This document shows positions 5,962 to 35,324 of a stretch of DNA of 64,000 nt, in pieces; within the stretch, counting starts at the first letter, position 1, and each line of letters starts with the position of its first letter. Origin of the DNA: Antedon mediterranea (Eukaryota > Animalia > Echinodermata). The notes beneath the pieces are model-generated. The model did not search any database. It saw only the letters and a program-made list of their open reading frames with translations, and was not told the DNA's origin. The DNA lies in the NCBI RefSeq assembly GCF_964355755.1, contig NC_092675.1, forward strand, positions 4,955,812-5,019,811, given 5' to 3'. The position numbers were made by a program, and so were the translations under genes.

Positions 5962-8900
5962 ATGAAAATTGTCAGTCTTTTACCCAGTCTGCTGTTGGTA
6001 TTCTTTTGTAATGTTTTGAGTACTGATAAATTGGCAGCGGCAATGGAGGTTGCCACACTTTCTAGTAGTTGTTGGTTAGTTATTATAACTTGTTAATGTA
6101 ACAGTATTAGTTAGTATCACCAAAAATACACATTGAGCCTGAATAGACGAGTCTAACTTTTGAGGAAATTTCCGTTCTATGTATTTGCTGAAAGTGTACT
6201 AAAATTGGCCGGTAACGAAAGTATGATTTTCTTAGATTGCTTCTAGGCCTATATCTTATTGTTTTGTAAACTTTGCCTTTAATATATCTAATCATAAAAC
6301 ATAACCATATTGTATATTATTAGATTGATAATAAAATACACAACAATGTAATTTCAAAATTGCCGTAATCTTAAAACATAAAACAAAATGTTCAATGAAT
6401 GCAAAATACAAAAGTATGATCGATTCATTGCGAATAATTTTTCTTTAAAACTTTGTTTGACTTTAAAGGGAAGAAAATTCAGATCGTATCGAGAATGTGG
6501 ATAAGGCGAATGCATGCTACGGGAATCAAAATACAGGTAAATAAACAAGATACCTCTTCTTTTTTTAAAAATCTAAACAATAATAGCATAATCAATTTAT
6601 TCAGCACAGCAAATAATTATTTATTTTTAGATGAACTGTTGTGCTTTATGTTCCAAAACGATACGGATAAATGTAGAAATGGTTGGAAAGAACCAGTGAT
6701 AAGCAACATGAACAACTTTAACTATGTCGTCGAAGCAGCCAAATACCTTCTTACACGCAACTCGACGTTTACAGTTCGGATGGAATTGGAAACGAGATTA
6801 CAGCGGTTTATGAACTCATTTACTTCGGAGTGTGTTTCCAGAGAAGTTTCCAAGAACGTGTCAAAGAAGACTATTTTATGTGTTACCTTTGAAATTGATC
6901 AAGACGGTTATAAGATAAGAATTTTCAGAATGGGTAAAAAAGTTTCTTGTCAAAGACAATCTGACGATTATCTTCTGTGCCTCGCCGATGTCATTCAACC
7001 GACTTCAACGAGAACTGTTTATGGTAACGTATGTCTTTTTATGTTCTAAAAAAATCAGTTTAAAAGGAAATTAATGAATGTTAACGAAACATTGTGTCAA
7101 TATACAGTTGTCAAAATTAACTTAAAACTCGAAAAATAAAACTGTAAAAAAATAAATCAATTTTAGCAAGGCCTAATGGAAAATGGAATACTATTAATCA
7201 CATTAATAATGGTTCCATTGATTGATACAAATCTCAATAGTTTTAGTCTGTGCAATAATAATGTTATCGTTTAAAAATCGTTTACAATTTAAAACAGACA
7301 TTACTACTAGTGGTACAACAAGTCTCTACAGTACCGGTAGTAGTCTACCAACTAGCTCTCTTCCTCTGTCTACAGAAGTTACCACCAGCGGTTCAACAAA
7401 TACCAACAGGTTCTACACCAGAAGTCTACCAACTAGCTCTCTTCCTCTGTCTACAAAAGTTTCCACCAGCGGTTCAACAAATACCAACAGTTTATACACA
7501 AGTAGTCTATCAACTAGCTCTCTTACTCTATCTACAGAAGTTACCACCAGCGGTCCAACACATACCAACAGGTTCTACACCAGAAGTCTACCAACTAGCT
7601 CTCTTCCTCTGTCTACAAAAGTTTCCACCAGCGGTTCAACAAATACCAACAGTTTATACACAAGTAGTCTACCAACTAGCTTTCTTCCTCTATCTACAGA
7701 AGTTACCACCAGCGGTCCAACACATACCAACAGGTTATACACAAGTAGTCTACCAACTAGTTCTCTTCCTCTGTTTACAGAAGTTTCCACCAGCGGTTCA
7801 ACAAATACCAACAGGTTCTACACCAGTAGTCTACAAACTAGCTCTCTTCCTCTGTCTACAAAAGTTACAACCAGTGGTTCAACAAATATCAACAGGTTCT
7901 ACACAAATAGTCTAACAACTAGCTCTCTTCCTCTGTCTACAGAAGTTACAACCAGTGGTTCAACAAATATCAACAGTTTATACACAAATAGTCTAACAAC
8001 TAGCTCTCTTCCTCTGTCTACAGACGTTACTACCATTGGTTTAAAACATCCCAACAAGTTTTATACTAGTGATGTACCAACTAGTTATCTTCGTCTATCT
8101 ACTGATTATACCATGGAGATAAAGAAGGAGTCGACTAATGCAAATGTAGTTGCCGAAATAGATAGTTGTTGGTAAGTATTGTTATACTTAATTTATTAAA
8201 TGTTTCAAAACCACCGGAACAAATTATTTATTATAAAATAACGTTTTAGATTGTGACTCTTAATTAATTTAATAGTCATATTGAAAAGCTACAGTAATAC
8301 TACATTTATAATTTAAGTTTTCAAATTACAAACATTCTATTGTGTTTTCTATTATTATTTCAGGACACAACTTTCACCAAATGTCGAACGTGTTGGAAGG
8401 AATGATCTATGCTATATTAGCGATAATTTAGGTAAACCGGTTCGCTATTACATTTAAAAAAAATTGTGTTTGCTTTTTTTAAACAAAATAATCCGATATG
8501 GACAATCTTTTTCACAAAAATTCATTTCATTCACAATTCATTAAAAACTAGAATATAATTTACTGTTGATATCAATATTTAGATAAACAAAGATGCTACA
8601 AATTTGAGGATAACTTTCAAGAATGCGGAGAAGAATGGAAAAAAACAATAATTCATAACAAACAAGAGTTTGACTACATTATTACTAAAGCTAAATATCA
8701 TCTGACACCAAACTCACGATTTACAATTAAGATGGAATTAGACATGAGGGCTGAACAGTTTATCAATAAATTTACATCCGATTGTGTGAATAAAGCGATT
8801 CATTCAGACGTAATGATGAAGAAAAACAGATGTGCCACTTTTGAGATTTACGAAGATGGGTACCACATGGAGATTTATACAGTTTCTAAGAATAAGCCGT

Positions 8901-11192
8901 GCACAAGTACTAAGGATGATAAAGTAGCCTGTTTCACATCCGTCAAGCCACAGGAATTAACAACAAAAGGTAAAACTTAATTAGGCTAATTAATCAGAAA
9001 ACGAATCTCCTCATTCATGACATTCTCAGATGTAGAGTTAATTTACGGATATGGTTGGTTTGATTCAGGATAAAGCAAAGCTCTGTGTACACTCTCAAAC
9101 TCAATCTGAATGTGATGTGCTTATATATGGACATGATGATGTCATATAACTACCATATTTGGGCATATCACTATAATGTTTGGGCACAACACACTTTTTT
9201 GTCAAACTAGTTTGATAGTGTAGACAGAGCTTTAGACATGTTACGTTACGATGTGGGAGGAGAGGACTTATATCCCGATGAAAGCGGAAATGGTAAGTTC
9301 TACAGAGGTTGAACCTCTTGCGGAAGTCATTGATAGAAAAGTTTCCATCATTACCTATCTTTAAAAAAAATTTTTTTTTTAAATGTTTTTAATTTTTTCC
9401 ACCAGCATTCACTTACACCACCGATTCATCCGATATCCAAGCGTCGACAGATACGTTCTCTGTTTCTCTAATAGTGATGGTAATCGCTGTGTCTGTATTG
9501 GCTGTTATAGTATTGTCGCTTGGTTGTTTCTGCTACGGAAAATTCAAAGAGGTTAGAATAATTGTGATTGTTTGTGTATATGTAGCGCCACCAGTAGGTG
9601 TTTTGCTGCTCAGGTATAGTTATGACGCGCCATGTATGCGAAATGGTTTTCGCCGAATGTTATAAAAATGTCCACTTGGAACACAGACTAGCATTGAAGA
9701 ACAGACCTAAAAATGTGATTTAATTGTTGTGACATTTATTTATAGACGAAAATATAAGCTAATTATATAACATTCATAAATCAAATAGGAAAGCTTTGCA
9801 ATAGGTTATAAAATTTATATCTACATTATCAATCATTCTGCATTTAACTCTGATCTGATTTTCAACTTAGGAACTTATTATTATTATTATTTTTACTTTA
9901 TTTAGAGAAAGACTCATCAAACTGCACCAGCAATACCTGCTCACGGAAAAGGCTTTAGTAAGTACTTATCAAATAATAATATAATATTTTTTTCAAACAA
10001 CCAAACCAACACAGTTTTCATTCTATACTCATACAATTTCTGTCTTCGATAGAAATAATATTTTCAGATCATCAAATGATGTCATAGTAAATAAGAAGGA
10101 TAGCATTCACGATTTGTATTGATCTTGACGTCATTTGTTGACTAGATTTGTGAAATATTTTGATTGATAAAGAAAATTGATTCTTATTTTTAGAATGAAA
10201 ACTTTTATAATTTAGGCCTATTTTATTTTAGTTTAGAAAAAAAAATCCAACTATTTATCTGTTTATCGTCATCGTACCACATACTTAAGCATTTTAATTA
10301 GCATCCATTATTTGTACAATTGTGGAATGGGAACAATTGGATTCAAATGTTTTCTTCTTTTACAGATGAAGGTGTTGTTATTCCGATGCAAAGTGGCATT
10401 GCCAACTCAACATATGAATATCCATATGAACCGGAGCCCTTATATGCTGCTATCAACGATAACGGGCTATATACAGATCTTCTTCGATCACGGTCCGAAA
10501 GTGCATTGCATTTTGAAGGTGGTCAATTTCTTCCACAAACGCGATCTCTTCAACGATTGGTGCCCCAGAGAGTGGCAGAAAATAAATGGAGTACGTTACC
10601 ATATCAAACAAAAATACAGTCTGAAGTCGGTGCCAATGCTTCAATAAAGATGAAGTATTTAACGTCTTCTCAGTCGGGTTTTAATAATACTGATGATTTG
10701 GTACGTAAGTTCCACTCGTCACAGGATACACATAGACAAACACAGGATAGAGTACATTACCGAAGTCAAGATGGTAGTATTAACTTCAGTCATGACGAGA
10801 AAGTTAACCATGTAAACGAGACGAACCACTTAGATCAGGATGGTTACATAAAATCGAACTTTAATTCTGGTCATACGAATAATGATGATCTGTATCTCAC
10901 TCCGATAGCTACCAGTGACGATTCATCAACGCAAATAGAGAATTGCAGCGATATCGTAAATAGAGCAATATTTTCAGAATCGACAAATTTAAACCCCGAT
11001 GACGAGGAAGAATTACCCACTTATACAACGTTAAATCCTACTGATATCAATACATATACAGCTTTAGAACAAGATAGCCAAAGCCAAACTCCATCTACGT
11101 ATACCGATTTAACAAATACAGTTAAAGTAATAAACAAAACAAATCTGGAATCGACTTACATATCACTGGAACCTACGCCTAATGATGACTAA
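5962..11192 (+). CDS. Receptor A: type I membrane protein with two divergent C-type-lectin-like modules, a mucin stalk, TM and a Tyr-motif-rich tail (~975 aa)
   Basis: Hand-spliced GT-AG exons 5962-6074, 6469-6536, 6631-7023, 7298-8171, 8364-8431, 8583-8969, 9406-9551, 9906-9957, 10366-11192 (2928 nt, in frame). Signal peptide MKIVSLLPSLLLVFFCNVLS. TM SLIVMVIAVSVLAVIVLSLGCFCY. Tail motifs YEYP, YAAI, YTDL, YTTL, YTAL, YTDL, YISL. AATAAA at ~11316 and ~11395. A possible upstream UTR exon has a donor at 4841. Confidence 0.85.
7342..8100 (+). repeat. Coding 81-bp (27-aa) Ser/Thr-rich tandem repeat, ~9 copies (mucin stalk of receptor A)
   Basis: Unit SLPTSSLPLSTEVTTSGSTNTNRFYTR. The first copies alternate RFYTR/SLYTS, giving a 162-bp higher-order dimer. 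Confidence 0.95.
9077..9233. mobile_element. PIF/Harbinger-like MITE, family copy 1
   Basis: TIR AAGCTCTGT(C/G)TACACT...AGTGTAGACAGAGCTT. Same family at 12118 and 57563. Confidence 0.7.
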
Positions 11193-11931: not shown

Positions 11932-14900
11932 ATGGACTACTCTCGTTTCAGGCTTGCAGCCATGTCAGCAACAGGTCGGTACGATTCGGTGAAATTGTTG
12001 ACGCTTGTGATTATATGCCTGAGCATTGTTTCAAGATGTAATTGTGGTCTGCAGACAGTCCATGTTACCAGACGATGTTGGTAAGTGTCTTGAATGTAAC
12101 AGAGGCAATGTGATCTTAAGCTCTGTCTACACTATCAAACTAGTTTGATAAAAATTGTGTGCCCAAATATGGAAGTGATATGCACAAACATGGTAGTGAT
12201 ATGACATGACCATGTCCATATATGGGCACATCACATTTTTTTGTCACAACATCAAGTTTATAGTGTAGACAAGGCTTTAGGGAATATGGAAATATACATT
12301 GTTTGTCAATTGAATTTTGTCTATAGTATGTTTGATTAAACACTCAAATTATGTCAATATTTTCTTCTCATACCTAATATGCCTATAATACTGCATGGCT
12401 ATATCAAGAATGAATCTCGCAATTAACGCATGTTATCATTTAGAAAATAGAATATTGTACCTTAAGCTGAATCTGGAGATGCATAGACCCACCTCGAGAT
12501 TGCACTGTTCATTTTGACCCAACTTTTCTCAATTTAATGTTTTGTCTCAAATACCTATACTGTAGTACATATCTTCTTCAAATGCCATTATGTTTTACTG
12601 TGCATTCTGTTAATTGTCGAATGTTCTGATACCATTATTATTTTAATAAATCACCTTCACCAGTGTAATACAGTACAAGGATTAAAAACTGCCAGCAAGT
12701 TCTACTTGAATTGTGTTTACGGTCATAGATTCTTAGGACCGGAAACGTTTTGTGACCTATCCCTATATCTTTCCTGAATAACTTATGCACATCGTACAAA
12801 GATTTGTCAATAGTATTACTATTCTACCATATTTTAAGAAAATTATATGTAGATAATTACTCTGAAGTAAATAAAAATACTATCTATTATCCGGGAATTA
12901 ATGCAATCAATCACCCGGTTGGCTTTTCACAGATAACAATATCTAAGGAAATCCTTACAAGTCATTTTGCATTATGTGTTTGTTTTCAAGGACGAAGTAA
13001 TGATCTTAATAACATAATGTAGGAGATAAACTCTAAATTCATAATCACAAACAAGTTCCTGGTATATTTAATATTTTCTTTCCAAACACCTAATTTATGA
13101 ACAATGAACATGGATTAACTTTTGACAAATATTGTTTTCTTTAATTGAATCGTTCATATAAATTTAAATTGTAATATTTAGGCTACTGTCATGTTATAAT
13201 TATTTCGTACTGAAATAAAATTCGATTCTTTAAACATAAATAATTTGTTTTCTGTTTATACAGGTCCGATGTACAAAATCCAGTGACAAACCTTAATGGA
13301 CAGAATACAACATGTTTTTCCAAAAACACAAACGGTAAACTATTCCTATTACACGCTTTGTGTGGTATAATTAGCATCATCATTATCTTGTGATTAATTA
13401 ATAATTACTTAATGATTAATTAAATGTACTTCAACTATACCGTAGTTTATTATACGACTAACACTCTATCGAATATCATTTAATTTAATGATTACAAATA
13501 ATATTAGTCATACCGAACTATTAGGCCTACCAATAATATCCGCCTGACCTTAACGAAAAAACCGGTGGTATGAATGTTGAATATGTGCGACATGACAGGG
13601 GCGGCGGTATTCATTGAATAATTTCGATTTCTATTTGTGTTACGGTAATACTTTCAATTTCACGAGTCAACTACAATTTCCTACACTGTTACGAACACCG
13701 CCCCAACTGGATACTGTTTCGACAAGCTAAATTGTCTATACTTATTTCATTATTTTTTTCAGAGGCAATTTGTTATAAAATAAAAAATTATACCATTCAA
13801 GAATGTGAACCACCATGGAAACTAGTGGCATTCAAAGATCCTATTGAGATAGATCATCTTGCAATGACGTTGTTTAATGGAACTGATTTAAACATCGGTT
13901 TAAACATTGTTACTTCTGAAAAAGTGTTTAGAAACTTTAACTTACTTACTGAAAATAACGATTGTACGGCTTTTAAACCGTTCAATAATGCAATCAGTGT
14001 CAATTTGTGTGCATTTGTTATAGCGCGGACAAATACCGATTACTACGAGGTACACTTTCATAACACGTCTAAAGGCTGCAGTGAGCATGTTAGCACTTAT
14101 TATTATGCGTGTTCAAAAACGGTCAGAATAGGTAAGTTTTAATATTGTTTTAACTACCTCGATAAATTACTATTGTCGGTTAGGAACTACAGCAAATTTA
14201 ATATTAGAAGGTTTTTTTTTAATTGAGCGATTCTGCCTTAAAATAATGTATTCGTAGATTTATAAAAGAAGATATTTTATGCTGAATATGGTCAGGGTAA
14301 GGCTTGATCGTGATCTTTAAACGATCGGAAAATCGAAATGGAAATTTACCAACGTAAATTTTCTTAAGTTATTAGATGTTATACACAAAAATTAACATCA
14401 AACTCTCAACAAAGATGAAATATTAAAGATAAACTTCTCTTGTAATAAATGTAGTCAACGCATCCCAAGAGTCTGCGTCATCGCCGACAAATGAGACCAT
14501 CATCTCGCCGACATCAATGGTTACTCCAACAGCAGGAATTGATATGCTGATCATCATTGTCATTATAGCTGCTGGGGCAATCAATGTACTAATCATTCTT
14601 GTAATTACAACGTGTTGCTGTTACTATAAACAAAAGGTTTGTCTTACTTTTGTCTGAATTTATTTGTATATTATAACTATATTTCACGATTAGACACTTG
14701 AAATAAAAGTAAGTAGGCTATACATGGCCCTGTATATAGTGATAATGCACTTTCGCGCTTACACAATCTAAAAACATTTTCGCTGCGCGGCGGTGATGTT
14801 GAGTGACCGTGAAACCTTTTAGGTGCGAAAGCGCCGATCGTGTCCCGGTTTTCGCCAGCCCTGGTATGATAATTCAGTAGCCATTATCTGATTTGCTATC

Positions 14901-17380
14901 AATTTAGATGTTTTTTCTAAAAAAGAATACATTCAACTTACAACTTATACGGGAATGTTCCGATAGCTGCTGTTCTGGTGAAACTTGCTTCCTTCCGAAG
15001 CAAATGTTCATAAAACCTGTAGAATAGCAAGCGATGAGACCACAGCTGATATTTGAGTATTCAAATAGAAATGAACCTCAACGGGAACGTTGAAATAATT
15101 GACATAACAATGGTTGTTACGTAATGGAGCTCAATAGAGAAAGAACGTTCGCTAATGAAAAGAAAATTCTAGATGAAGGTGTTCTCATCTATTTCTCAGT
15201 ATTTTATTATTTTTTCTGTTTAGATTAGCTATACGGAAAAGTCACTGGTAGGCTATAGTTTTAGGTCCACATGAACACACTGCACACGAATTTCCGACTA
15301 CTATACCAATTAAAACCCCACAGTATCAGAGGAATGAGCAATCCATGGATATGTAGAAAGACTAAAGAAAACTTTATGATATAATATTAGTATAGGCCTA
15401 TAAACACTTTCTAGGAAAAAACCACCATGCTAAATCGCAAACAAATCTTATCTTTAAAGAAACAGCCGTCAACCATTCGTTGCAAGCAAGATCTATTTTT
15501 GCCAAAATGTAAAAACAGATTTATTATTCTATATCACGACGTATGCGTGCAATACACCATGGAAACCATATATAAAAGACCAATTTACACAGAAGACCAG
15601 TCGGTAATGGTAAGCGGAAAACCGCGTAGCTGGTACCCTGTCACTATCCTTATACAAACAATCAGTCACGTCGTAGTTGTTTCTGAATAATAAGAAAACT
15701 AGGCCAACTACGGCACTCGTATCAATTTAATTATTTTCCCGAAATCGAATCTGTTTTTATTGTAAGCGCATTTCGGCTAAATCGTTGTTGTAAGTGACGT
15801 CACATCCAAACAATTACATTTTAAATGGGGCTAAACAGATAAAGAAACAAAATGCCGGCGTACATTTAATATTGAATAATCAGTGATAGGTTATCTCCCC
15901 CACTTTAATTTGTATCTCCAGGTATTGTGTCTGACATGAGATACAGGGAATGTTCATGAATTTATATAAGGAAGTACATTTGGTGTTCTGGTATTTGATT
16001 TCTTTGATTACTACGCATGCGTTGCCTGAAGCGATTTCTCCGGTCCAGCTTACAGGGAATTGAAAATCAAGGATTCGTTAAACCAGGGAGTTGTAAATTA
16101 TTTTAAAACTCCCTGGTTAAACGTTGAAGATACTATTATATTTCGTAATCACAATGACAGTTGTGTAGTCGTCTGACTGGTTGATGATTTCCTAAAATGT
16201 CAATAATAAACATGTTTATTTCCTTTTCTTTCAGTATCACAAAAAGTCTTTATTGATCAGTGGTTCAATGAAATATACAAGTAAGAAAATACTTCCGTTG
16301 CTCATATTCATAGTGTGTATTGTATTTCAAATGCACATAAACAACTTTGAAAGACCAGGCATATGTCGAAATTATTTATTCCAACATTTCCAAAGCTTTT
16401 TATAACTATTCAAATTACACAAATGTATTTATCAAAAAGGGAAATGTTAACGTTGTATCGAAATAACGTGAATTATATCCTTTTTGAAGGTTTCGAGGTC
16501 GTGCATCAGCCGACAACTCACACTTGACCTTGTATTTATTGTTTTGTTTTCCAATGTATTTCCAAATTATATTTTAAAATGGAGTCGACAGTAACGTTAT
16601 TATTGTTTTTTTTTTGCAGATCGTTCGCTTCCAACACCAGCACCAGAAGCCACTTACAAACCCAGTCTGAGTGAATGCGGCGAATACGCTTACCCTACAC
16701 TGCCAACTTTCCTAAGTAGGCCTAGTAATAAACAACCCGATCAAGATGAGAGCTCTGCATACATGTTATCAAATGCACCTCTAGAAAGAATGGACGACGA
16801 TTGCGAATACATGGGTCTGGGGGAGACTGTCAATGAACACCGTCAGAAATCGATCTTAACAGTAAAACGACGTAAACATCAACAAAGACAGAATCGTAAT
16901 GTATCTTCCTATTTAGAAGTTGAAGACGTATCTGAAACCAATAATTTGAATCCCCAAGGTCCCATAGCACACACATATGCCGATCTAGACAGCACCACAC
17001 AGTGTAATAGCCATGAAGTTGGCGCAACAACACATCATACCACAAATCAGAAACAGGAGAGTAATTGTTACATGGATCTTGATGACGCTGCTCGCACACC
17101 GAACAGGCATATGGATGTATCTGTATACAAAGATCTCCATGGTCATATCATTCCATCAGGCTGCAACAGAAAAGGATGTCAAGAATGTAAATCGGCTCGT
17201 ATGAATCAGACAACAAAGCATTCATCATTTAACCATGATAAATCTACGGAATCGCCATTATACCAAGAGGTCGAACAACCAGTCTTTTATATGGCTGTCG
17301 AAGGGAAGAGTAAAGCCTCTTGTGAAATTGGCCATATGGCGAAGTGCTTTGACGACAATACGTATTCGTTTTTAACATAA
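11932..17380 (+). CDS. Receptor B: type I membrane protein with one divergent C-type-lectin-like module, TM and a Tyr-motif-rich tail (~525 aa)
   Basis: Exons 11932-12080, 13264-13334, 13763-14131, 14455-14636, 16235-16280, 16620-17380 (1578 nt, in frame). Hydrophobic leader KLLTLVIICLSIVSRCNC. Domain CYKI..QECEPPWKLVAFKDPIEIDHL..LNIGL..C..C..C..YAC. TM MLIIIVIIAAGAINVLIILVITTCCCYY. Tail motifs YAYP, YMGL, SSYLEV, YADL, YMDL, SVYKDL, YQEV, YMAV, YSFL. Confidence 0.85.
12118..12278. mobile_element. PIF/Harbinger-like MITE, family copy 2
   Basis: AAGCTCTGTCTACACTATCAAACT...ATAGTGTAGACAAGGCTT. The interior is the reverse complement of the 9077 copy. Confidence 0.7.
16084..16115. mobile_element. 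32-bp hairpin with 7-bp TSD (P-element-like footprint or mini-element)
   Basis: GTTAAAC|CAGGGAGTTGTAAATTATTTTAAAACTCCCTG|GTTAAAC. Confidence 0.6.
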
Positions 17381-20964: not shown

Positions 20965-23900
20965 ATGCTACTTGTGTTAATTTTCCACGCGTTAGTTGCG
21001 TCTAAAACGGTTGTTTCACAAACACCTAACGTGACTACTACGGGGACTACTACGACAAACATAATAACAGAAAGCGTCAAGATTGTCAATAGCTGCAATG
21101 TCGGCACGTAAGTTATTTAAATACAATTATATTTTAGGCATATTATAAAGCGATGGCACCAGATTACTGATAGCCATAGATTATAAATCAACAAACACGT
21201 TCCCGCCTGTTTACACTATCACTTTCATCACTTTGTTTAGTATGTGCTAGGCGAATCGTTACATGGCCGACAGAGGATATGCTGTTATTTATTAAATACA
21301 TAGGACTAGAATTATTTAAAATATGATTGAAAAAAAATATCTGAAACGAGATGATATGAGTGTTATCGTGACTCTTTGTATTTTATAAAGCAAAATCAAT
21401 TTAATACTAATAATGATAGGCCTGATAAATACCGACATTTAATATTGGAATGAAGTGCTGAACTTATGATTTATCTTTTGTATTGTTTTTGCCAAATTGT
21501 AAGGGAAGGAACAAGTCGAACCCAACCCTTAATGCGTCCACCTATTCATTAAATAAATGTTTCGTCGATCAAGCCTAGCCATATGGTGAAATAGATTTAT
21601 GATAGAAATAAATGCTGGTATTGATATATTACTTTAAACAAATAATAAAAGCCATTCCTGTTTCCTGATGACGATTATGTATAGACTGTTACGAGTCTTT
21701 AATAGTATTAATAAGCATGATAACAAGGTATTCAGCCATATTGATATAGATGTAATATGAACAATGACATAATGGAGAGATTATTAATTTATATGATGAG
21801 AGTAGTGTATCCAGTAGTGGGATACTGGATACTAAACACCACCTCTACCACTACCTGGATGCTAAACACCACCTATACCACTACCTGGATGCTAAATACC
21901 ACCTCTACCATCACCTGGATACTAAACGCCACCTCTACCCCTACCTAGATGCTAAATACCACGTATACCACTACATGGATGCTAAATACCATCTCTACCC
22001 CTAACTGGATGCTAAATACCACCTCTACCACTACCTGGATACTAAACACCACATATACCACTACCTGGATACTAAATACCACCTCTGTCACCACCACCAC
22101 CTGGATGCTAAACACCACCTCTACCACTACCTGGATGCTAAATACCACCTCTATCACCACCTGGATACTAAACGCCACCTCTACCCCTACCTGGATGCTA
22201 AATACCACCTCTACCCCTACCTGGATGCTAAATACCACCTCTACCACCACCTGGATGCTAAACACCACCTCTACCCTTACCTGGATGCTAAATACCACCT
22301 CTACCACCACCTGGATACTAAACACCACCTCTACCACTACCTGGATGCTAAACACCACCTCTACCACTACCTGGATGCTAAATACCACCTCTGCCACCAC
22401 CACCACCACCACCTGGATGCTAAACACCACCTCTACTACTACCACCTGGATGCAAAGCACCACCTCTACCACTACCTGGATGCTAAGCACCACCTCTATC
22501 ACTATATCTGGATGCAAGCACCACCTCTACCACTACCTGGATGCTAAACACACTCTACCACTACCATGATGCTAAACACCACCTCTACCACCACCTGGAT
22601 GCTAAACACCACCCCTACCACTACCTGAATGCTAAACACTACTACTACCTGGATGCTAAACACCACTCCTACCACTACTTGCCCTAATAAAATCAGCATA
22701 TACTAGAAATATATGTTGCCATATTTCTAACACTTGTTCGTTGGCTGCGTAACAACAGAACTACAAAATGCTAATGCGAAATGTTAAAATGAATCAAATT
22801 AGATAATCTACAAAGTAAGAGAGGAATGTTTAATAGTAGCAATGAAAATGTATGTTGATTATCAGTTATAGAAATTAAAAATACTAAGTCATACCGTAAG
22901 ACAGAAATTTGTTTTGAAAACTGGTATTAGACCAGGAGCCCAGAGGGGTCAACCTAGCTGGAAAGTTAACCAATTTCTATGCATGTGGCAATTATCTACG
23001 TACATATCAATGTATGGAAATGACAGTCTGGCGCGTTTCTTTTGGTGGGTGTGGCTAGGAGGGACACTGTAAAGGGTAAAAAAAATGAGCTAGATCAGCT
23101 GAAAAGTTAACCCCATGAAATATTTTGCAAATTGTTTGACATAGAATGAAATATAAGGAATGGCTATTGCCAGACGATTTTAGTGGTGGGGGGTGCCTGC
23201 CAGACCCCCATTTCTGGAGGGCCAAAAATGAGCTAGATCAGCTTAAAAGTTAACCCTCTAAAACTGGTGGGAAAATGTTCAATAAACTCATAACTATCAT
23301 GAATGACCATTGCCAGACATTTTCAGTGGTGGATTGTACCCGCCAGACCCCGTCAAACACCCCACCCACAAAAAATTGAGCTAGATCAGCTGAAAAGTTA
23401 ACCCCATGAAATATTTTGCAAATTGTTTGACATAGAGTGAAATATAATGAATGGACATTGCCAGACGATTTTAGTGGTGGGGGGTGCCTGCCAGACCCCC
23501 ATTTCTGGAGGGCCAAAAATGAACTAGATCAGCTTAAAAGTTAACCCTCTAAAACTGGTGGGAAAATGTTCAATGTACTCATAACTATTATGAATGACCA
23601 TTGCCAGACATTTTCAGTGGTGGATTGTGCCCGCCAGATCCCGTCAAACACCCTCACTCCCAAAAATGAGCTAGATCAGCTGAAAAGCTAACCTTTTAAA
23701 ACATGCTGTAGAATGTTCAGCATGATCCCTAGTATAATAAATGACCATTGCCAGACATTTTAAGTGGTGGGTTGTGTCAACCAGGCCCCCTCAAACACCC
23801 AACCCCCAAAAATGACCCAGATTAGGCCAAGGGTTAACCACTGTAAAACTGGTGGGAAAATGTGTAGTATACTGTCAAGGATATGAATTGTCATTACCAG

Positions 23901-26900
23901 ACATTTTTATTTGCTCATTATAGAACCACCCCATCCATCCAACCCCTTACCTAATTCACAAATGTGCCACTATGGTATATAGTTCAACATAGTGTAAAAT
24001 AGGTATTCAGAACAAGACTTCTTTGTCTTTTTGTGGTGTGGAAAAAAGTAAATCAATTAGTCAATTGGTTTATGCAGTTAAAGGACATATTTAGAAACTG
24101 ACTTATCTTCTATAATGGTTCCCTAGAGAATAATGTTGTTGATTATCATCAACATTTCAAAACAAAGGCTTATTTTATTAAATGCATTTTGATTATGATA
24201 GAGAGTGGTACATCATATTTCAACGATTGTATGTTAAGAGCGTTCAGTGAAATGATATGGTCAACTGTAAAGAATGCTGCTGCATTACGTAAGAAAATGA
24301 AGTCTGACAAACATGCTGATACAACAAACAAGGTTTTTCTAATGAAACAACCTAAAAATTCAATCAGCTATCACCCTTTATGTCATAGGTATTACACTGC
24401 CGTGAAACAAAACAAAGTAGTGTCCTTCAGAAATCAGATGAGTGTGGCATGTTAAGGGGAACTTGCATATTTTGTGGAAAAGGCCGAAAAAATGGGAAAG
24501 AAGAGAAAAGGCTTAAGATAGCAACTGTTTCTGGGTGCAAGTCACTTTCCCAGCGGGTAAAATTTTTAAAAAACCAACGTATCAATAGTCTAATTTGGTG
24601 TGGCGTTGATCTGCCGAGTTCAGTTCTTCTAGAAACTGATAAACATGATGGTTCAACAGAAGAGCATTCATCTTATTGAAGTAACACATCTTATGGAAGT
24701 CACAAAAGGGCAATTTCATCCCTACTGAAACATATTGAATTATTATTAAGTATTGGGAAAACAACGAGCTATACTTGTCTCTGATTTGCTAAGCTTTTAC
24801 AAAATCGAATTTGTCAATAATGGAGGAAAACTGATATCAACTCATATTCGTCCCAAAATCTTACAAGGAAAATTCAATAAAAATTTAAAGATGAAATCAA
24901 AGTAAAACCTGCAGACAGACGAAGAGGTAACTTCATTTATAGATCACTTCTTCTAGGAGAAGAAGCCACTGCTCGACTTTATGATAATTCTGAACAATAT
25001 GTACAGGATAATAAAATAAAATGGGCTGCTCTTCATCTTAGATCTATAATCATGCAGCTCCCACAGACAAAGACCTGCTACAGTTCAAAACTTAAAAGAG
25101 TGTGCTGCCAAGATACCATCACAGTTAGAATTATTCTTTAGGAGTCTTCTTGGTGGCATCGACCAAAATGCCAATGATGCAAACAAAGACAAGTTTGATA
25201 GAAAGGTTATTTCCATTGCATCTGATGCCATCTATAATGTATCTCGTGGAACTGTGAAACCATGGAAACACACTGTCGTTGGTTTATGTTTTACATCTCT
25301 GACAGGATCAAAACTGGCTATGCAAATTTTGACATTGTATTAGTAGTGAAAGCAAAGGCCTTGAGACTGAGTTTGCCTATTCAGTTCAAGATGATGAACG
25401 CGACGCCCCAGATGGTATCCGGCTTGACCCAACCTTGGCAACTGCATGTGTATGGGAGAATAATGATACAAATGTAGAAACACTTGATGGTAAAGAAACT
25501 CTACACGCTACAGTTGGACATACATATCAGAATATATTGCATGACGACCAACTGCTCAATAGGAATACTATTGGATTTCGGGATGGTAGAAACAGGCGGA
25601 AATGTGTTGGAGTTGAAAGCGAAATACCACCTTTTAGGATAGGTATAAATAAAGCTTTGTTTATAAGAGTTCCAATGCCACATCAACTACAAATGTTAGA
25701 GAATGTAGTACAATCACTGACAAACCAATGGAATACCAAATACCACTGAAGGCATTGGATATGTATTGGTTTTGGAAACTGAATGATGGAGATACACCCC
25801 TACATGCTGGATTCATGAGCAAGTATATCAATAATCATTTACCAGTTCAGTGCATTTGCTACAGGGATCCTATATCAAAATCCCCAACAAACAATGATGT
25901 GGTTAGAGAGAGAAAATGATCCAGACTATGGCTATTGCCAAGGAAACTGGCCAAGACTATGCAGACAAGACTATGCAGTTGTGACATATGATTTGGCAGT
26001 AGCATTAAAAGCTTACTCCATACAAACAATACAATCCCCCCTATTTGATAAGCTTTTAGTATTACATGGCAATTTTCACACAGAGTTGGCGTTCTACGGA
26101 GCAGTTGGAACGTACATTAACGACAGCGGTATCGAATATATTCTCCAAGAAGCAGATATCTTGGCTGAGGGGTCAATGATGGGTTTCATCAAAGGAAAGT
26201 TTTACAACAGGTGCACTAGAATTCACCAATTGCTTGCCAATGTCTTGGAGCAAAAGTTGTATAAACGCTTTCTTCAAGAAATAAATGCAGAAGATCATCA
26301 CACATTTTAAGAAATAATGTCAACTGCACCTTTGGACCCATCATTGATTGAAGAACATATATCGGATCCTGTCACCTGCAGAAGTATGAGAATTACTTCC
26401 AGTCAGTGCTTACTGGAAATATAGGTTCAACAGCACAATTCTGGGCTATTTACATTTTTCTTATTAATCGACTCCATAGAGAACTTCAGAGATGTGTGAA
26501 AACAAATGATGTCACTGGCTACATTAATGTATTTCCAACCATATTATCTGTTTACTTTGCCCTGAACCGACCTAACTACGCCAGATGGGGAACTCTATTC
26601 ATACAGAAACTGAAAAACGTTGACCTAAAGTACTGGAAAAATGAGCATTTTCCATCAGACGTACAAATAAGCACTACAGTAGATCAGCTGTTGACCTTTC
26701 CTTAGAACAGACGGTCAATCGTGATTCTTCTTCAAGTATGAGAGGGATTGTTGCCTTTCCCTATTCAGAAAATGTAATGCGCCAGTGGTCATTGACTATG
26801 AGTCAACGAGCCATGGCAGTCACGGAGCTGAGAACATTTGCTGGTCTTGAATTGGGGGAAACTGCAACAGCTCAATGCCGTCCATCAAGAATAAAAAAGG

Positions 26901-29900
26901 ACACATTGACAGTGAAACGGAAGAAACAGAGATTGAAGAATCAAGTGATTCTTATGGCGATGCATAGAGTGAAGAGGAATATATGGATTAATTTAAATAA
27001 TTTGTGCAGAAAAGTCATAGCTTATTAAATAAGACTGTTTTTTGTTGTAACTAATGAAAACTACTGTAGATAGAATAAGGTACTATATAAAGTATCATAT
27101 GCTAAAATGTCGGGTGTTTGATATTTGATGTAGTTCTCATTTTAGTCATTCATGCTGTTTTTTAGTGTACTTAATTGCTCCATATATTTTGTTTTATAAG
27201 TTTAGGTTTTGAGTTGATCTAGTTCATGTTTTTTTGGGGGGGGGGGGGGGGGGGGGTGTTTAATTGGTGTCTGGCGGACACAACCCACCACTTTAAATGT
27301 CTAGCAATGGTCATTTATTATACTAGGGATCATGCTGAACATTTTACAGCATGTTTTAAAAGGTTAGCTTTTCAGCTGATCTAGCTCATTTTTGGGAGTG
27401 GGGGTGTTTGACGGGTCTGGCGGGCACAATACACCACTGAAAATGTCTGGCAATGGTCATTCATAATAGTTATGAGTACATTGAACATTCTCCCACCAGT
27501 TTTAGAGGGTTAACTTTTAAGCTGATCTAGCTCATTTTTGGCCCTCCAGAAATGGGGGTCTGGCAGGCACCCCCACCACTAAAATCGTCTGGCAATGTCC
27601 ATTCATTTTATTTCACTCTATGTCAAACAATTTGCAAAATATTTCACGGGGTTAACTTTTCAGCTGATCTAGCTCAATTTTTTGGGGGTGGGGTGTTTGA
27701 CGGGCTCTGGCGGGCACAATCCACCACTGAAAATGTCTGGCAATGGTCATTCATGATAGTTATGAGTTTATTGAAGATTTTCCCACCAGTTTCAGAGGGT
27801 TAACTTTTAAGCTGATCTAGCTCATTTTTGGCCCCCCCCCCAGAAATGGGGGTCTGGCAGGTACCCCCCACCACTAAAATCGTCTGGCGATATTCATTCA
27901 TTATATTTCACTCTATGTCAAACAATTTGCAAAATATTTCATGGGGTTAACTTTTCAGCTGATCTAGCTCAATTTTTGGGGGGTTGGGTGTTTGACGGGG
28001 TCTGGCGGGCACAATCCACCACTGAAAATGTCTGGCAATGGTCATTCATGATAATTATGAGTTTATTGAACATTTTCCCACCAGTTTCAGAGGGTTAACT
28101 TTTAAGCTGATCTAGCTCATTTTTGACCCCCCAGAAATAGGGGTCTGGCAGGCACCCCCCACCACTAAAATCGTCTGGCAATGGCCATTCCTTATATTTC
28201 ACTCTATGTCAAACAATTTGCAAAATATTTCATGGGGTTAATTTTTCAGCTGATCTAGCTCATTTTTTTTACCCTTTACAATGTCCCTCCTAGCCACACC
28301 CACCAAAAGAAACGCGCCAGACTGTCATTTCCAAACATTGATATGTACGTAGATAATTGCCACATGCATAGAAATTGGTTAACTTTCCAGCTAGGTTGAC
28401 CCCTCTGGGCTCCTGCTCTATATGTCATAAAAACAGAATAAGAAACTAAATATCGTTAGTTATTGAGTTTGTTATTGAACCTAAAAAACAATGTTAAAAT
28501 TATAGTTTCGTTACATTTTTCAGAACAAATATAAGTTCGGAAATCATCGATCTAGGGGACGAAACTTGTACCCTACACTCGGATGGTAAGTTTAAGTTGA
28601 AGCAATAAGGTAAAGTTAGACATCGCATAATTTATTACATCATTATATCCAACAAAATAGAGTTTAGAATGGTCAATTAATTTAATACCTTATTTCTAAC
28701 ACTGAAACAAAAATGTATTATTTTCTTTAAAAATTAATAAAAAAGAATTCGAATTGTATATTTTGTAAACATAAAACAACTGGCACTACTACTATTATCG
28801 TAACAGCATGGAGGTATTTTATACCTCCATGGTAACAGCGACAAATGCAGAATTAGTATTAACTATATAGGCCTACTGTAGACTAATAGTTTCAGCATAC
28901 GTTTTTAATGGAATCGGGTTAAATTTTGATATCTGTCTGTTCCCAGAGGCCATGTACAAATCTTTTGAGAGTCGTCGTGTAGCGTAACAAGTTTATACAA
29001 TTTCACCAGTAATTAGTCAAACATCCGGATACAATTACTATAGATCAATGGCAAGAAGGAGATAATAGACCTGTTAATGAGTGTGTTTGATGCATACCTG
29101 GATAGATAGGCCTATTATATTTCTGTTATACGGTAAACAGCCTACCCCTACCGTAGTGTGATTTACATTCTACTTAGGCCTAATTACGTTAGGAACGTTT
29201 GGTGCCAATTACCGGTTATGAAGGAAAACGTTATAGCAGCAACTATTGCCTTTGGCCTGTCTGTGTGCCATAGTATCAAATTTATAAGACGATTTATAAT
29301 ATAATTGACTTGACTTATGGCGAGTGGAGTCCTTGAACCACCATGGCCCTCCAAAGTTTCCTATCTGTCATAGCTGTTTCCACTTCTGCTCTATCCAAGC
29401 CAGTATCCAATGATCATCTTTCATAGACAATTTTCTAGTGACGTAATGATAATAGTTTTGAACATGCTATGCTCCTGTAAACAACAGACGGTGGTTTTTA
29501 CGTTAATTATCGCGTTTTAATGTGATTAATTTCATTTATTTTTGTCTCCATTAAAATACAATATAAAAAATCGTGGACAAACAACAAGAAAACATCACAC
29601 AAAACCAGGCAGAGACAGGATTCCTAAAAAAGCGAACCTAATCACTATCTAGTAGGTCTCCTATTGCACTGATTGTATAAAAAACATTTAGATTAAAATT
29701 TGTATAAACATTAGAAATGCATATAAATATTATATCAAAATAAATTAAAATATATTGCATTCATTGTCATGATGTGGAAAACAATGTTTGTAATATTGCG
29801 TGTCAGGAGTAACAAAACCTAACCCTAACAACTTAAATTCTGTAAAATAAGATAATACTTTTCTTTATTATAAAATTATGCACCAGTGAATTATGTACCT

Positions 29901-32900
29901 TTTTTTTTCTGAAAAATTAAGTTTTGGTAATAAATCTCTTTTTAATGCATTTCCCGATGATCACAAACTGAGTAATACATTCTTTAAATTTATGCTGAAA
30001 AAAGGAATCATAAAATACATTTAAGTCAACGTGAACGAGAAAAGAATTTTATATAGTTTAAAATAAACTGGCTGGCACTCCTTTTATTCAACGAAATAAT
30101 ACTTCAGGAAAATAGATTAATTTCTGCTTGCCACTTCCGTTTTTGGTTTTAATATTGTGCACACATCCCGGTTGTTAACAGGCGTTCTATTGTGCGTATT
30201 TACATTTTATGAAAAATCTTTCGCATTGATAACGTCAATCATGCCAGTATGTTTCATTGAAGCAACGATTGACTTCAAATTACTGTACTAGAAAATTGTC
30301 TATGAAAGATGATCACTGTTGAATAATTATTCCATCACCTGTTTAATGGCTTTTAATGCCCATAATAATGATCATATTACACTGTGTTCAAATAGACGAT
30401 TAGACTGGACTGGTGTTATGTTTATATTTTGTAACAATGCATTTCTTCTATAAAACTGTGAACTGCAATACGCAGAAACACTAATACTTGGTCTATCAGG
30501 TTTAGCTAAACTCAAATCCAACAATTGGTTACCACCAATCGTTTTTGCACGACTGACGTCCCATATTTTGCTTAACCTAAAAAATTATAATCAATCCGAC
30601 CTGGTACAGATTATTTTGCGTGCTTACAATGTCTAAACGTTGAACTGCGTTACGTGAAAATACGTATGCTTGATCTATCAGGTTTTGCTACACAAATCCA
30701 ACTACCGATCCTTGTAATGTCCTCTTGTTAAAAACTCATTTTTTTTGGATGTTACAAGATGGCGTAAAAGATACTTTTCATTCAACCTAATTTTCACGTA
30801 GGCCTATATGGAATGCATTGCCCACCGAAGAAAACTTTTTTTCTCCAAGACTCTTGATAATTTTCTATATAAAACAAATATGTATGGCCAACAGCCATTA
30901 AGTCGCGTGCTACAATGCATAGTGATACCGGACCGACAGACAGACAGACCGACAGACCGACACACAGACCGACCGACATAGTGAACTATAGATAAAAAGG
31001 CATAATTTTGACGAATTTTGGAACTTTTTCATCAAAAACGTGCGCAAATTATCCAATTCGACGTGCTCGTATGACGTAATTTTAAGTCGAAATTGTTTAA
31101 AAGTTGGTAAAATTATTAGAAAAGGCTACAAAAACCTAAATCACGAGAAAAAAGTATGTATTTAACGCTACGTGCGCACCGCGCGCGTAAAATTTGCGCG
31201 CGTATGGGAATTTTTGACATGCTCAAAATGACAAAAAACGCGTAGAAAGTTGATTAAAAATTAATTTTGCGCATTTTAAAATTTTAAATGCGCGTGCGCG
31301 CGTAACTGTGTAAAACACATTTTTTTTCAATTTAAAATGTTATTTGGTTTTTGACCTATGTTAAATAAGAGAAAATCGTTAAATCGCGCGTAAATCACGT
31401 TGCGCAACTCTAACGTCATTCACAATAGCACAATTTCACGTAAATGCCCACATGTTGACATCAAAACAGTTCAAAAAGTACAGAAAAGCAATAAAACGCA
31501 TAGTGATACCGGACCGACAGACAGACCGACAGACCGACAGACAGACCGACAGACCGATTGACATAGTGAACTATAGAGTCGCTTCCACGCGACTAAAAAG
31601 AATTATTCGACTCATGTGTTGTTGACTTAGGCTATGCCCATGACATTTTAGTAGTTCACATGTGGAAACAATATCACAATGTTTTAACCCAAGTTGAGTA
31701 CTTTCGAATGTAGACATTATAATGTCGTACCGGGGAAGAATTTCATAACTTGACGTTAATGGCATTGTGGCTAACTTATAACAAATGTTTTTACTTTCAT
31801 CAATAATATTTTTCTCTTTATATATAGACACATGCTTTTATTTTGGGAGAAACAGTGTACCATACAAACATGCTTCTCAAGAATGCTTGGAAACAGGAGG
31901 AGGGGAGTTAGCATCCATAACTAATCCACGTATATTACATTTGCTACTTGAAATGGTTAATAAACAAAACTCTAGTGATGATCCAAATTGCTTTTGGATT
32001 AATATTTCTCATTCAACATTGATTTCATTGAACGAAACTTTTTCAATTTATTTTCAATCTTATAACAATTGTGGCTCAGTAGTTGGCGAAAATGTTCAAC
32101 CACAACATACTTGTTACTTTGCAATGGCAAAACATCTAAATACCAAGTTAATATTGCGACAGATGAAGAAACAGGAAAAATGTACAACAGTCAACATGAA
32201 GGTGCTTTGTCAGGGTAGTAAGTATAAACAATTAATAAAAATGCATTACGGATTAGAACAATTTAATTATTATAATTCTAGTTGAATTTGACAGTGAGAC
32301 TTTAGGAATAATGCATCCACATATTCATAAGACAAAAATATCATAATGTAATAGTGTATACCTTTTATAAAATGTATACACGATATGTTTTGGTTATTTC
32401 AGTTCCTGATGATAGGAGTAATTGTTTTAACCAAACTGTGTTTAATGATGTTATGATAGTTTTTGTTGTCTCTCTATTTTCTCGGTATTGTCTTTCTTCT
32501 TGTCATCTAACTTCTCATTCAGTTATCGGATCACGATACAATAACGATGGTTATACAACATTTTATATGTTATTACTTTTATTATGACAGGCCCAAGAGG
32601 TCTAGCTGATACAAAATTGATCAACTCGAATGGTCCAATCACTACCATCATAATCGCTACATCCGTTGGAATGTTAGCGTCACTACTTATTGTTGGTTTA
32701 ATAATTAGGAGCCTACGCAAATCTCGAATTAATTCACATAACAGGTAAGGTTTATAATATGTACACATTCAATATGTTCCTCTAAGGCTAAAATGGGTAA
32801 AAGAATATATATGAATGCGCATTTAAACACTTGGATCGTGCTCTTTTTTGCAATAAACCATTGCTGTTCCACCCACGACCAGTTCTGATTATCTGTCTTG

Positions 32901-35324
32901 TCCATGCACTATAAATGATGTAAATTATGTGCTTTTTTCCTTTCAACACACACGATAGCATGTCAACTGAGGGTTTCGGAGAGGAGAGAGATAGAGGCAA
33001 AGAACTTATAACACAAGAATCTCCTGTTCGTCCGAAGCGCGTAACAATTTCGAAAGGCATTGTGGGATAGAATAGAGCTATGGGTGGCGCCATTGTGAGC
33101 CATGGAGTAGGGCGCCTGAATCAAATTAGAAAGTCAAAATCATAGAGGCGATCTGCTAATACTCTAGCGGGGATAGAGTAATTGACTGAGGAGTAGGGCG
33201 CGCCCGCATCAAATTAGAAAGCCAAAATCATAGAGGGGATCTGCTAATACTCTAGAGGGGGTAGAGTAATTGACTTCCTAGTTTGGAGGGGGCGCTGCTC
33301 CATGCTGTGAAATGGCGTCGCCCAGTTTGACCTTTTAACCATGTACTTCCGATACTGTGTTTTGAATGCAAATTGAAGAACAGGTCCAGATTCTTGTGTT
33401 ATAAGTTCTTTGATAGAGGCAACTGAGAGGATACCGTAATTTGTACAATGTATTTACGACTTTTGATTATAACAAAATTATTTTATTTGAAAAAAAAAAA
33501 ACATGTATTGAAGTAAATAGAGTAAAACCTTGACCTTTTAATATAAAGTAATACTTTTACATAAAATGTTATAGAGTAATCTATTCGCGGTCATAAAAGC
33601 TTAAAGGAGATTCGATTGCTAATTAACAAAGTATACAATCATTGACATAGTTTTTTTGTTTGTTGAAATTCTGTATGTTTATTTTTAATGTTAAGAATAA
33701 CCGTATGCCTAATATGCTTCATTATATATTTTGATACTCATGAGTATGTAAGCTCATATCCATGCACACATCGTCTACCATAATTAGCACACCAAATTAT
33801 CCTCTAATTATAGTATACTAAGCTATTTTCGAGCTTTGTATAACGTTCGTGTGCTTAACGTTCTATCTGAAGGATGAGTCAATACAAGGACATAGACAAC
33901 ACGGCACTGGCTTGAACTCAGATTTTCACACGAGTCTAGTCCGATGCCTTACTGTCTACACAATGAACCTAAACACGATTGTACATTAAATATCGCTTAG
34001 GATTAGAGATGCATAATAAATGAGCCAGTTATATCACATTAAAGTTTATAGCATGGAATGATATGATCATGAATATTTATTTTTTTTATTACAGAATGGA
34101 AAATGTTTCAAAATCATCTTCTGTAGAAGAAAGAAAGACCGAAGATCGTTGTAAGTAGGCCTAACATTAAAACAGATTTAATTGTATAATTAATAATAAC
34201 AAAAGTAATTGTAAGAAAGGAATGATTATGAAAACTAACCAACGACATATTCATTACTCTTCCATGAAAATACATGATTTTTTAACATAACTATATATAG
34301 TCGTTATTAACCATTTTCGAGAAAAGCCATTGTAGTTGTTTAAAATACGTGTGTTTAGAAACGGAAGAGATTACCGTTATATAACCACATTGGTAAATCG
34401 ATCTATAATTATGTACCAATTCTGAATACTGCACCTAAATAAACTTCAAACCGTACACTGTATGTAGGCCTATATAATGTAACCAATTTACTAGTTATAG
34501 GTTTAATTTGCCTCCATTATAATGAATTCATGTAAACCTAAGTCTCAGCTAATATAAAGAGAACTCTTCCAAATAGGAAAAGCATATACGAAATGAGACA
34601 ATCAAAATTGAACGGTTAAATAATAGTCATTGAGCTGGAGGTAGTCGGTGTTCAAGAACTGTTTATCTAAGTTTTTTTTCTCTCAAAAATTTCAGACATA
34701 GCAAGTGATAATGATTATGACAACGATACCAAAGGAAACGAATTTTCTGACTACGCTGAACTAGATAATGATTTCAAACCTGACCAAAGCGTTACCAACT
34801 CAGATATAAAGAATACAAAAGTAGATCGTGATGCAAATGACACAGATAGCGGACAAGATGGTGTTGCTGGTGAAGAACCTTGTTACTTTGTTTTAAACAA
34901 ACAGACATCTGAAGAGTCGCTACAGCATACGTATGAAGCATGTGGTTTTCGAGATCTTCCGTCAACATCATCGTTACCGATGACGTCAAATCCTCTTACG
35001 TTAACCCTACCTACGGGTGCGATGCGGAATGCCGACGCAACGGACGAGAATGTTTATGATTGGCCGGATCTGTTACAGCCAAGTTATAGCGCCAAATCAA
35101 GGAGAACACAAAGTGAAACTGAACCGCAGTATTTCACTTTAGAGATTGATAATGAGGACACTGAAAACATATATGACTCCGTGTTTCCCATCGAAAAACC
35201 CTTAAAGAAATCTCCAAAAACTTTCCGAACAAAGCATCTTTCACTTCCAAGAAAAAAACACAAAGCAAAACAACATAACCAAGCTAAAAGTCGTTTTATT
35301 AGTGGCGGAGTTACGCATAAATAG
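20965..35324 (+). CDS. Receptor C: type I membrane C-type-lectin-domain protein with a Tyr-motif-rich tail (~477 aa)
   Basis: Exons 20965-21107, 28524-28585, 31828-32217, 32591-32744, 34095-34150, 34696-35324 (1434 nt, in frame). Optional phase-1 micro-exons near 32403 and 32523 are uncertain. Signal peptide MLLVLIFHALVASKTVVS. Clear CTLD: CFYF..YKHASQECLETGGGELASITN..FWIN..C..C..VLCQ. TM ITTIIIATSVGMLASLLIVGLII followed by RSLRK. Tail motifs YDND, SDYAEL, YFVL, YDWP, YFTL, YDSV. Confidence 0.8.
21824..22680. repeat. 27-bp minisatellite, ~30 copies, in intron 1 of receptor C
   Basis: Unit CTGGATGCTAAACACCACCTCTACCAC-TAC-like, with occasional CAC expansions and decay toward the 3' end. Confidence 0.95.
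22928..28420 (+). mobile_element. Academ-type DNA transposon, internally deleted, with ~1-kb repeat-built TIRs
   Basis: Termini TAGACCAGGAGCCCAGAGGGGTCAACCTAGCTGG...CCAGCTAGGTTGACCCCTCTGGGCTCCTGCTCTA with a 3-bp TSD TAT (22925-27, 28421-23). TAG...CTA ends with a 3-bp TSD are characteristic of Academ. The inverted arms are made of ~146-bp subunits. Confidence 0.85.
24200..26990 (+). pseudogene. Frameshifted Academ-like DDE transposase
   Basis: Consecutive fragments in shifting frames: YHPLCHRYYT, CIFC, VWENNDTNVETLDGKETLHATVGHTYQ, VVTYDLAVALKA, LHGNFHTELAFYGAVG..SG, GKFYNRCTRIH, YFALNRPNYARW, SAVDLSLEQTVNRD, and an acidic C-terminus. Confidence 0.85.
28807..28831. mobile_element. 25-bp hairpin with 7-bp TSD (P-element-like footprint)
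   Basis: GTAACAG|CATGGAGGTATTTTATACCTCCATG|GTAACAG. Confidence 0.6.
29408..30318. mobile_element. ~910-bp non-autonomous TIR element, family unassigned
   Basis: TGATCATCTTTCATAGACAATTTTCTAGT at 29411 is exactly inverted at ~30287-30315. No clear TSD. Confidence 0.55.
30872..31598 (+). mobile_element. Helentron-associated non-autonomous element (HINE/DINE-1-like)
   Basis: (GACA/GACC)n tracts sit in a duplicated block (30917-30991, 31498-31577). 3' hairpin AGTCGC..GCGACT followed by an A run; CG-rich interior. Confidence 0.55.
33081..33325. mobile_element. Small inverted-repeat element with an internal ~87-bp tandem duplication
   Basis: GGGTGGCGCCATT..CATGGAGTAGGGCGCC versus inverted GGGCGCTGCTCCATG..AATGGCGTCGCCC. 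The block ATCAAATTAGAAAG..AGAGTAATTGACT occurs twice. Confidence 0.5.

Follow-up and report, generated by a model that had tools for sequence, protein, structure and literature searches.

Within the window, by which we mean the whole 64-kb stretch of DNA that was analysed, three genes (A, B and C) lie in tandem on the forward strand. Their exons were joined by coordinate into models with GT-AG introns and open frames, and every exon named in a preliminary description of this DNA, which had proposed three co-oriented genes with a common exon plan, was found; the sizes it had given for the mini-exon (62-71 bp), the domain exon (369-393 bp) and the linker exon (46-56 bp) were borne out, together with their phases. 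Mini-exons of 68, 68, 71 and 62 bp (modules A1 and A2 of gene A, then B and C; phase 2-1) are followed by domain exons of 393, 387, 369 and 387 bp in the same order (phase 1-1), the RefSeq donor for gene C lying 3 bp further on and giving 390 bp. A transmembrane (TM) exon, whose end phase is 0 in A and B and 2 in C, leads to a linker exon of 52, 46 and 56 bp in A, B and C, ending in phase 1, and to a tail exon encoding 275, 253 and 209 aa with 14, 12 and 9 Tyr, respectively. The proteins of the window are 100% identical to Antedon mediterranea RefSeq models, which are annotated as 'uncharacterized'.

Gene A encodes 975 aa in total, and its architecture goes beyond the plan described earlier, which was itself confirmed: a second module and an 874-bp Ser/Thr exon, both absent from that description, give two units of mini-exon plus domain exon with a stalk of ~290 aa, rich in Ser and Thr, between them. 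In order, we find a non-coding first exon (4734..4840, start approximate), a signal-peptide exon (5937..6074, ATG at 5962) that ends in phase 2 within a split Cys-Trp, the mini-exon (6469..6536) and domain exon (6631..7023) of A1, the stalk exon (7298..8171; an 81-bp unit repeated 9.4 times, 47% S+T), the mini-exon (8364..8431) and domain exon (8583..8969) of A2, the TM exon (9406..9551), the linker exon (9906..9957) and the tail exon (10366..11192). The split Cys-Trp that closes the signal-peptide exon recurs at the end of the stalk exon, so the module was duplicated as a whole. The last 420 aa of our model are RefSeq P0002, and the second mini-exon has a homologous stretch in P0001, the orthologue of gene A in Anneissia japonica.

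Transcript support comes from a run, X1, whose record carries no RNA label and which we treated as RNA because its contigs are spliced and cover no intron between 5780 and 7338. Three X1 contigs in this interval contain exons only and are joined at GT..AG, at 6074/6469, 6536/6631 and 7023/7298; one side of the last join is backed by only 29 letters. These joins take in the signal-peptide exon, the A1 module and the 5' join of the stalk exon. An X1 contig with 107 loose letters ahead of 5937 placed the first exon, through a match to 4811-4840, with its end at 4840. Further along, in the interval 8150-17700, the tail of gene A resumes in an X1 contig exactly 198 bases past domain A2, the length of the TM and linker exons, and in gene B the length of the X1 contig is exactly that of the spliced mini-exon, domain, TM, linker and tail. 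X1 thus upholds the splice models of A and B, the genes to which its read evidence is limited; the join 8171/8364 lies outside the joins seen. One low-depth X1 contig (6994-7045) continues past A1 into the intron and on into letters resembling an element at 14947, possibly an insertion allele or an alternative end.

Gene B comprises a signal-peptide exon (11932..12080), a mini-exon (13264..13334), a domain exon (13763..14131), a stalk and TM exon (14455..14636), a linker exon (16235..16280) and a tail exon (16620..17380), and its model of 525 aa agrees with RefSeq P0005 in every letter. Two RefSeq isoforms of B, X2 without the mini-exon and X3 without most of the first part of the domain exon, would both damage the module (13264-14131). 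The introns of A and B also hold a very high-copy short interspersed element (9195-9236 and 12116-12260), with a depth of hundreds of thousands.

The three genes had been called intact, which holds for A and B on the X1 contigs and RefSeq, and for C is established only from the mini-exon on. From there (mini-exon 28524..28585; domain exon 31828..32217, with the RefSeq boundary; TM exon 32591..32744; linker exon 34095..34150; tail exon 34696..35324), gene C is RefSeq P0003. Its signal-peptide exon (20965..21107) is predicted by the coordinate model, and the first 122 aa of P0003 derive from open reading frames of a transposon in intron 1, a start that is either wrong or alternative. This degenerate DNA transposon (22928..28420, 5.5 kb) has TAG..CTA ends and a TAT target duplication, inverted ends of ~980 bp that are 89% alike, subrepeats of 143-148 bp and broken open reading frames at 24100-27025; it gave no Pfam match at cut-off, and we take it to be Academ-like. 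The same intron contains a 30-bp minisatellite (21825-22678), Thr-rich in one frame, perhaps the decayed remains of a stalk exon; it was rejected as a working stalk exon for C because of its stops and frame shifts. Directly downstream of the cluster, on the same strand, an M1-family aminopeptidase gene runs from 38786 to beyond 47000 (Pfam Peptidase_M1_N, E 4e-16; HELAH at 42273).

The expectation of little primary similarity among the three genes stood for C against A and B, but not for A against B, which are related by sequence (z 7.6-9.7, with 0 of 500 shuffles as high). Neither C against A nor C against B shows similarity beyond shuffles (z -0.6 to 0.1), and in a profile comparison of C with A/B (hhalign) the score was matched or exceeded by 11 of 60 shuffles. 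Identity among the ectodomains is 18-38%, about 23% between A and B and 18-23% for C. C may be lectin-like too, but its relation to A/B is undetectable in sequence.

Relatives outside the window are few, in line with the lineage restriction that had been proposed. A profile built from A1, A2, B and P0001 (542 positions, the stalks of P0001 included, hence not the domain alone) matched four of 1,835,955,588 representatives, namely P0001, P0004 (B), P0002 (A) and P0007, all of them A or B of two species. Searches of 90% clusters (2 of 27 candidates for A2, 1 of 76 for C, 1 of 40 for B) gave no further paralogue and no Anneissia C; these searches cover annotated proteins and can miss models that lack the domain or sit inside a cluster. 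All relatives that came to light belong to Anneissia japonica (Comatulidae), of the same order as A. mediterranea (Antedonidae). There, P0001 is LOC117103867 and P0007 is LOC117103868, and since these locus numbers are consecutive and the longest contig is 377,623 bases for both, the A-B pair is likely to be syntenic and one-to-one in two feather-star families. Orthologue identity is 51% for A, measured over domain A2, and 35% (49/139) for B. P0001 has at least three modules, with stalks shorter than that of Antedon A. Taken together, the three look like stable single-copy genes, and not like a fast-multiplying self/non-self locus.

What does the outer module look like? Eight Cys are common to A1, A2, B, two copies from P0001, and P0007, spaced at 17-19, 10-11, 10-11, 53-54, 15-16, 23 (19 in P0007) and 10-11; long-form C-type lectin-like domains (CTLDs) have six, and the A/B module thus has two more. 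The skeleton of C matches with one extra Cys (19, 8, 17, 35+27, 14, 23, 9). For P0007, which is the orthologue of B in Anneissia, an AlphaFold model was built on an alignment of five family rows with no known lectin in it, and reached a mean pLDDT of 52.8 (~78 over residues 71-110) and a pTM of 0.54. A VIA structural search with this model returned chains of the C-type lectin fold in 50 of 50 rows (best Z 6.0, rmsd 3.5, 96 aligned), for a few of which, such as Bd2740 and gp42, we presume that fold; in Foldseek, every row above probability 0.2 was a C-type lectin, the top one at 0.89 with E 0.017. These scores include no Foldseek match at E <= 0.001 and stay under Z 8 in VIA. The earlier view of type I receptors with a lectin-like ectodomain is supported, and the A/B module is predicted from this model to be a degenerate CTLD. 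ESM Atlas features placed the module of gene B with the Lectin_C set in 27 of 30 matches (score 0.93), while the structure rows for gene B (TM 0.31-0.36) were uninformative. For A2 the same features pointed to START-type clusters and not to lectins, a reading we rejected: the family is assigned on 10-11% of members with a low recognition score, and is contradicted by the 50 of 50 CTLD-fold rows. Pfam found no domain in A1, A2, B or P0007, and no PDB sequence matched at E <= 0.1. Matches to GSG-1, DUF761, Commissureless and SIT fell below the Pfam cut-off and were rejected. Gene C reached 19.2 bits (E 0.002) for Pfam Lectin_C, short of the cut-off at 22.6, and a structure model led by it had a pLDDT of 33. 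The sugar-site motifs EPN/QPD and WND occur in none of A1, A2, B, C and the two P0001 copies; C keeps only QPQ, ahead of the second core Cys. The module likely binds protein rather than sugar.

Below the membrane, the three tails consist to 46-57% of S/T/D/E/N/Q/P, cannot be aligned with one another and contain no Pfam domain at cut-off. The TM helices of A, B and C hold zero charged residues. Just inside the membrane lie a CxC in A and a CCC in B, comparable to the juxtamembrane Cys of palmitoylated adaptors, and C has no such Cys. The richness in Tyr motifs claimed for the tails was upheld in all three: YxxL/I/V motifs number 6 in A against 2.4 in shuffles (p 0.017), 9 in B against 1.5 (p 0.0005) and 4 in C against 1.1 (p 0.016). 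The ITIM consensus occurs twice in A, three times in B and once in C, beyond chance only in B (p 0.003), and no hemITAM ([ED]3-x-YxxL) is among the listed tail motifs of the three genes. In gene A, a proximal pair of motifs stands 5 apart, and a distal run of four includes two spaced by 7; the latter are the one pair with strict ITAM spacing (Yxx[LI]-x7-Yxx[LI]), of which B and C have none, and the spacing of 6-9 given for ITAMs in the account of PMC9546547 takes in this 7. The proximal EPLYxxI-(5)-YxxL is conserved in the Anneissia orthologue of A, as are one DGY and one YLxP site, and the tail of that orthologue taken alone is not enriched in YxxL/I/V (3 against 1.6, p 0.20). The distal run, ITAM-spaced pair included, is absent from the Anneissia model, so this pair is either lineage-specific or the Anneissia model is cut short. 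In sequence, the EPLYAAI of gene A resembles EPIYA, which docks Csk once phosphorylated (PMC4946704).

Variation is spread unevenly over the locus. Between X1 and the window, the listed pieces of ectodomain and 5' sequence (signal exon, mini-exon, A1 and A2 of gene A and the domain of gene B, the count leaving out the TM and linker pieces and gene C) differ at 0 of 1,357 bases, and the tails at 47 of 1,395 (6 gap letters excluded, 66 of the bases being 3' UTR; Fisher p 1e-14), in a comparison that represents one pair of individuals. The DNA runs may be the window's own source. Single X1 differences also fall in the signal exon of B (one) and in its stalk (one), and in the DNA sample a contig breaks at 8730, inside A2, with one contig carrying 16 differences, their positions not listed, over 8150-9155. 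Across 5780-7338, 0-1 of 1,559 bases vary in four runs, introns included, against 2.5-5% in the neighbouring tails; since the introns are near-invariant too, this may be a low-diversity block and not exon constraint, and a recent sweep or a shared haplotype is possible. The X1 differences listed in the proximal motif of A and at two Tyr codons are synonymous. The stop codon of gene A is itself variable: X1 has A>C at 11192, a change that accounts for about half of the depth in the DNA runs, and the read-through allele (11190-11234) adds 14 residues with 2 Tyr among them, one of these within a YxxL, ending at 11234.

Several described systems share parts of this design. PAG/Cbp, LAT and SIT have juxtamembrane Cys and numerous Tyr docking sites along an extended tail of low complexity, with almost no ectodomain, whereas A-C carry folded modules and stalks; P0001 gives a weak match to the SIT profile (E 0.009, below cut-off). 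CD302, CD93/CLEC14A and layilin are type I proteins with a CTLD lacking the canonical sugar site and a mucin-like stalk, with short tails and, in CD93, other domains; the PDB searches gave no sequence match to them. Ly49, CD94/NKG2, KLRG1 and DCIR likewise have a CTLD without a sugar site and read protein ligands, and are type II with short tails. In paired receptors, the activating member has a charged TM residue and a short tail; the suggestion that A-C are paired-receptor-like fails on ectodomains only 18-38% identical, tails that are all long and Tyr-rich, and TM segments free of charge. With Ly49, CD94/NKG2, KLRG1 and DCIR, A-C share ITIM-type motifs but, unlike them, have no near-identical ectodomain pair, paired receptors being characterised in PMC3533184 by very similar ectodomains and opposite signalling. 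Among invertebrates, the nearest kind described comes from oysters (PMC13027682), whose transmembrane C-type lectins bear a hemITAM: CgCLec-HTM/TM1 also join a transmembrane C-type lectin domain to a cytoplasmic Tyr motif, and signal through Syk, but they bind LPS and bacteria by a carbohydrate domain and have a single hemITAM, whereas A-C lack the sugar motifs and spread 9-14 Tyr over 209-275 aa. Botryllus FcoR, as presented in PMC11507803, are type I proteins of about 520-610 aa with mixed ITIM and core YxxI/L/V motifs and alleles that vary in tail motifs, some or many loci being monomorphic; they differ in having ~53 loci, polymorphic haplotypes and a fester-related ectodomain, against three genes, a lectin fold and one-to-one orthologues here. 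Hydractinia Alr are clustered single-pass genes with tails more divergent than ectodomains and both ITAM and ITIM, but, in the account of PMC9546547, they have Ig and Fn3 folds, 41 genes and highly polymorphic Alr1/Alr2 ectodomains. A-C fall outside the paired receptors, the sugar-binding C-type lectins and the large Alr-type clusters.

How, then, should the cluster be read? The departures of gene C could mean that only A and B are paralogues, with C an ordinary C-type lectin gene not related to them, whose 5' end the transposon may have disabled: the sequence of C gives no signal against A/B, its TM-exon phase differs, it has no Anneissia match and its RefSeq start lies inside the transposon. 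Yet C follows the same plan of phases (2, 2-1, 1-1) with a linker and a single tail exon, has the Cys skeleton of A/B with one Cys more, and adjoins B in the same orientation, and we regard a separate origin as improbable. It is somewhat less improbable, though still unlikely, that the genes encode non-immune adhesion or tissue receptors (of skeleton, nerve, epidermis or gamete contact) whose tail couples to Src/Csk and to the cytoskeleton. They would work in the manner of CD302, CD93 and layilin, type I proteins with a non-sugar CTLD, and CD302 and CD93 are among the tied fold matches. Stable one-to-one orthology with adjacent locus numbers in two families, low ectodomain diversity and the mucin stalk all suit such a role, as does the EPIYA-like site that works at focal adhesions in Pragmin (PMC4946704). 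On the other hand, ectodomains that have diverged by 49-65% inside a single order, and that lack relatives beyond feather stars, would in our judgement be unusual for developmental receptors. This alternative differs from the explanation we prefer in context; the signalling chemistry is the same.

The preliminary description had leaned towards a paired-receptor-like family for immunity or self/non-self recognition and cited Hydractinia Alr. On such a reading, paired receptors would form a polymorphic locus for immunity or allorecognition with birth-and-death evolution, comparable also to Botryllus FcoR and Biomphalaria GRC. Tandem, co-oriented, diverged genes with ITIM/ITAM-type motifs are what such a locus would offer, and an identity of no more than 35-51% between the orthologues of two feather-star families, together with a near-homozygous block (5780-7338) that could reflect a recent sweep, would agree with it; tail alleles that vary in Tyr number also recall FcoR alleles varying in motifs, many FcoR loci being monomorphic in what PMC11507803 reports of them. 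Against this, the four matches among 1.84 billion representatives are all A or B of two species, the 90%-cluster searches yielded no further paralogue, and there is neither a near-identical ectodomain pair nor a short-tailed partner. With one Anneissia orthologue each of A and B, and ectodomain pieces identical where tails differ between two individuals, an Alr-like locus was not borne out: the pattern of 0/1,357 against 47/1,395 is the opposite of that described for Alr1/Alr2 (PMC9546547) and GRC (PMC4361660). We consider such a locus a poor fit and quite unlikely. The FcoR alleles and loci set a precedent (PMC11507803) whereby low diversity argues against an allodeterminant and not against a receptor for conserved self.

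We favour, at a probability of about 0.6, the explanation that A-C are undescribed non-catalytic phosphotyrosine receptors, with a CTLD lacking a calcium or sugar site, a conserved protein ligand and a likely dampening effect. All three would be type I membrane proteins, A and B being expressed, with an outer module predicted to be a CTLD without a calcium/sugar site and presumably binding a conserved protein ligand; in gene A, one or more such modules would be raised on stalks of mucin-like character, with two modules in Antedon and three or more in Anneissia. Inside the cell, the juxtamembrane Cys of A and B may be palmitoylated and Src-family kinases may phosphorylate the tail Tyr; the EPIYA-like site, once phosphorylated, could then bind Csk or SHP-type proteins, and the distal YxxL repeats SHP or Syk. 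The recruitment of SH2 proteins would probably dampen the cell response, the inhibitory sign being a guess from motifs. A lectin-shaped outer part without sugar motifs, combined with a Tyr-rich tail, makes it likely that these proteins relay cell-contact signals, perhaps as sensors of conserved self in coelomocyte or epithelial contact. For an immune role we would give about even odds. More tentatively, and on balance doubtfully, we posit an inhibitory self-sensing set which reads a conserved self protein and checks coelomocytes via Csk/SHP, convergent on the missing-self receptors of the vertebrate NK type, its strength tuned by the allelic number of Tyr and its reach by how many modules are stacked.

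What is known of immunity in echinoderms concerns mainly TLRs, NLRs, scavenger receptors and Transformer proteins, and the literature searched yielded no receptor family from this phylum whose tails are of the ITIM/ITAM type. Nor did we find a published description of A-C, as the preliminary description had supposed, the supplements of crinoid genome papers (e.g. PMC7351957) and subscription papers lying outside the scope of that search. A lectin ectodomain joined to a Tyr tail is already known in invertebrates, from oysters, and our data lean away from allorecognition. The natural stop-codon allele of gene A makes a direct test of tail dosage possible, and A-C (A and B being expressed) stand as concrete candidates in the earliest-branching echinoderm class. 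Were the self-sensing reading true, they would be, within the literature searched, the first such immunoreceptor family to be described in echinoderms.
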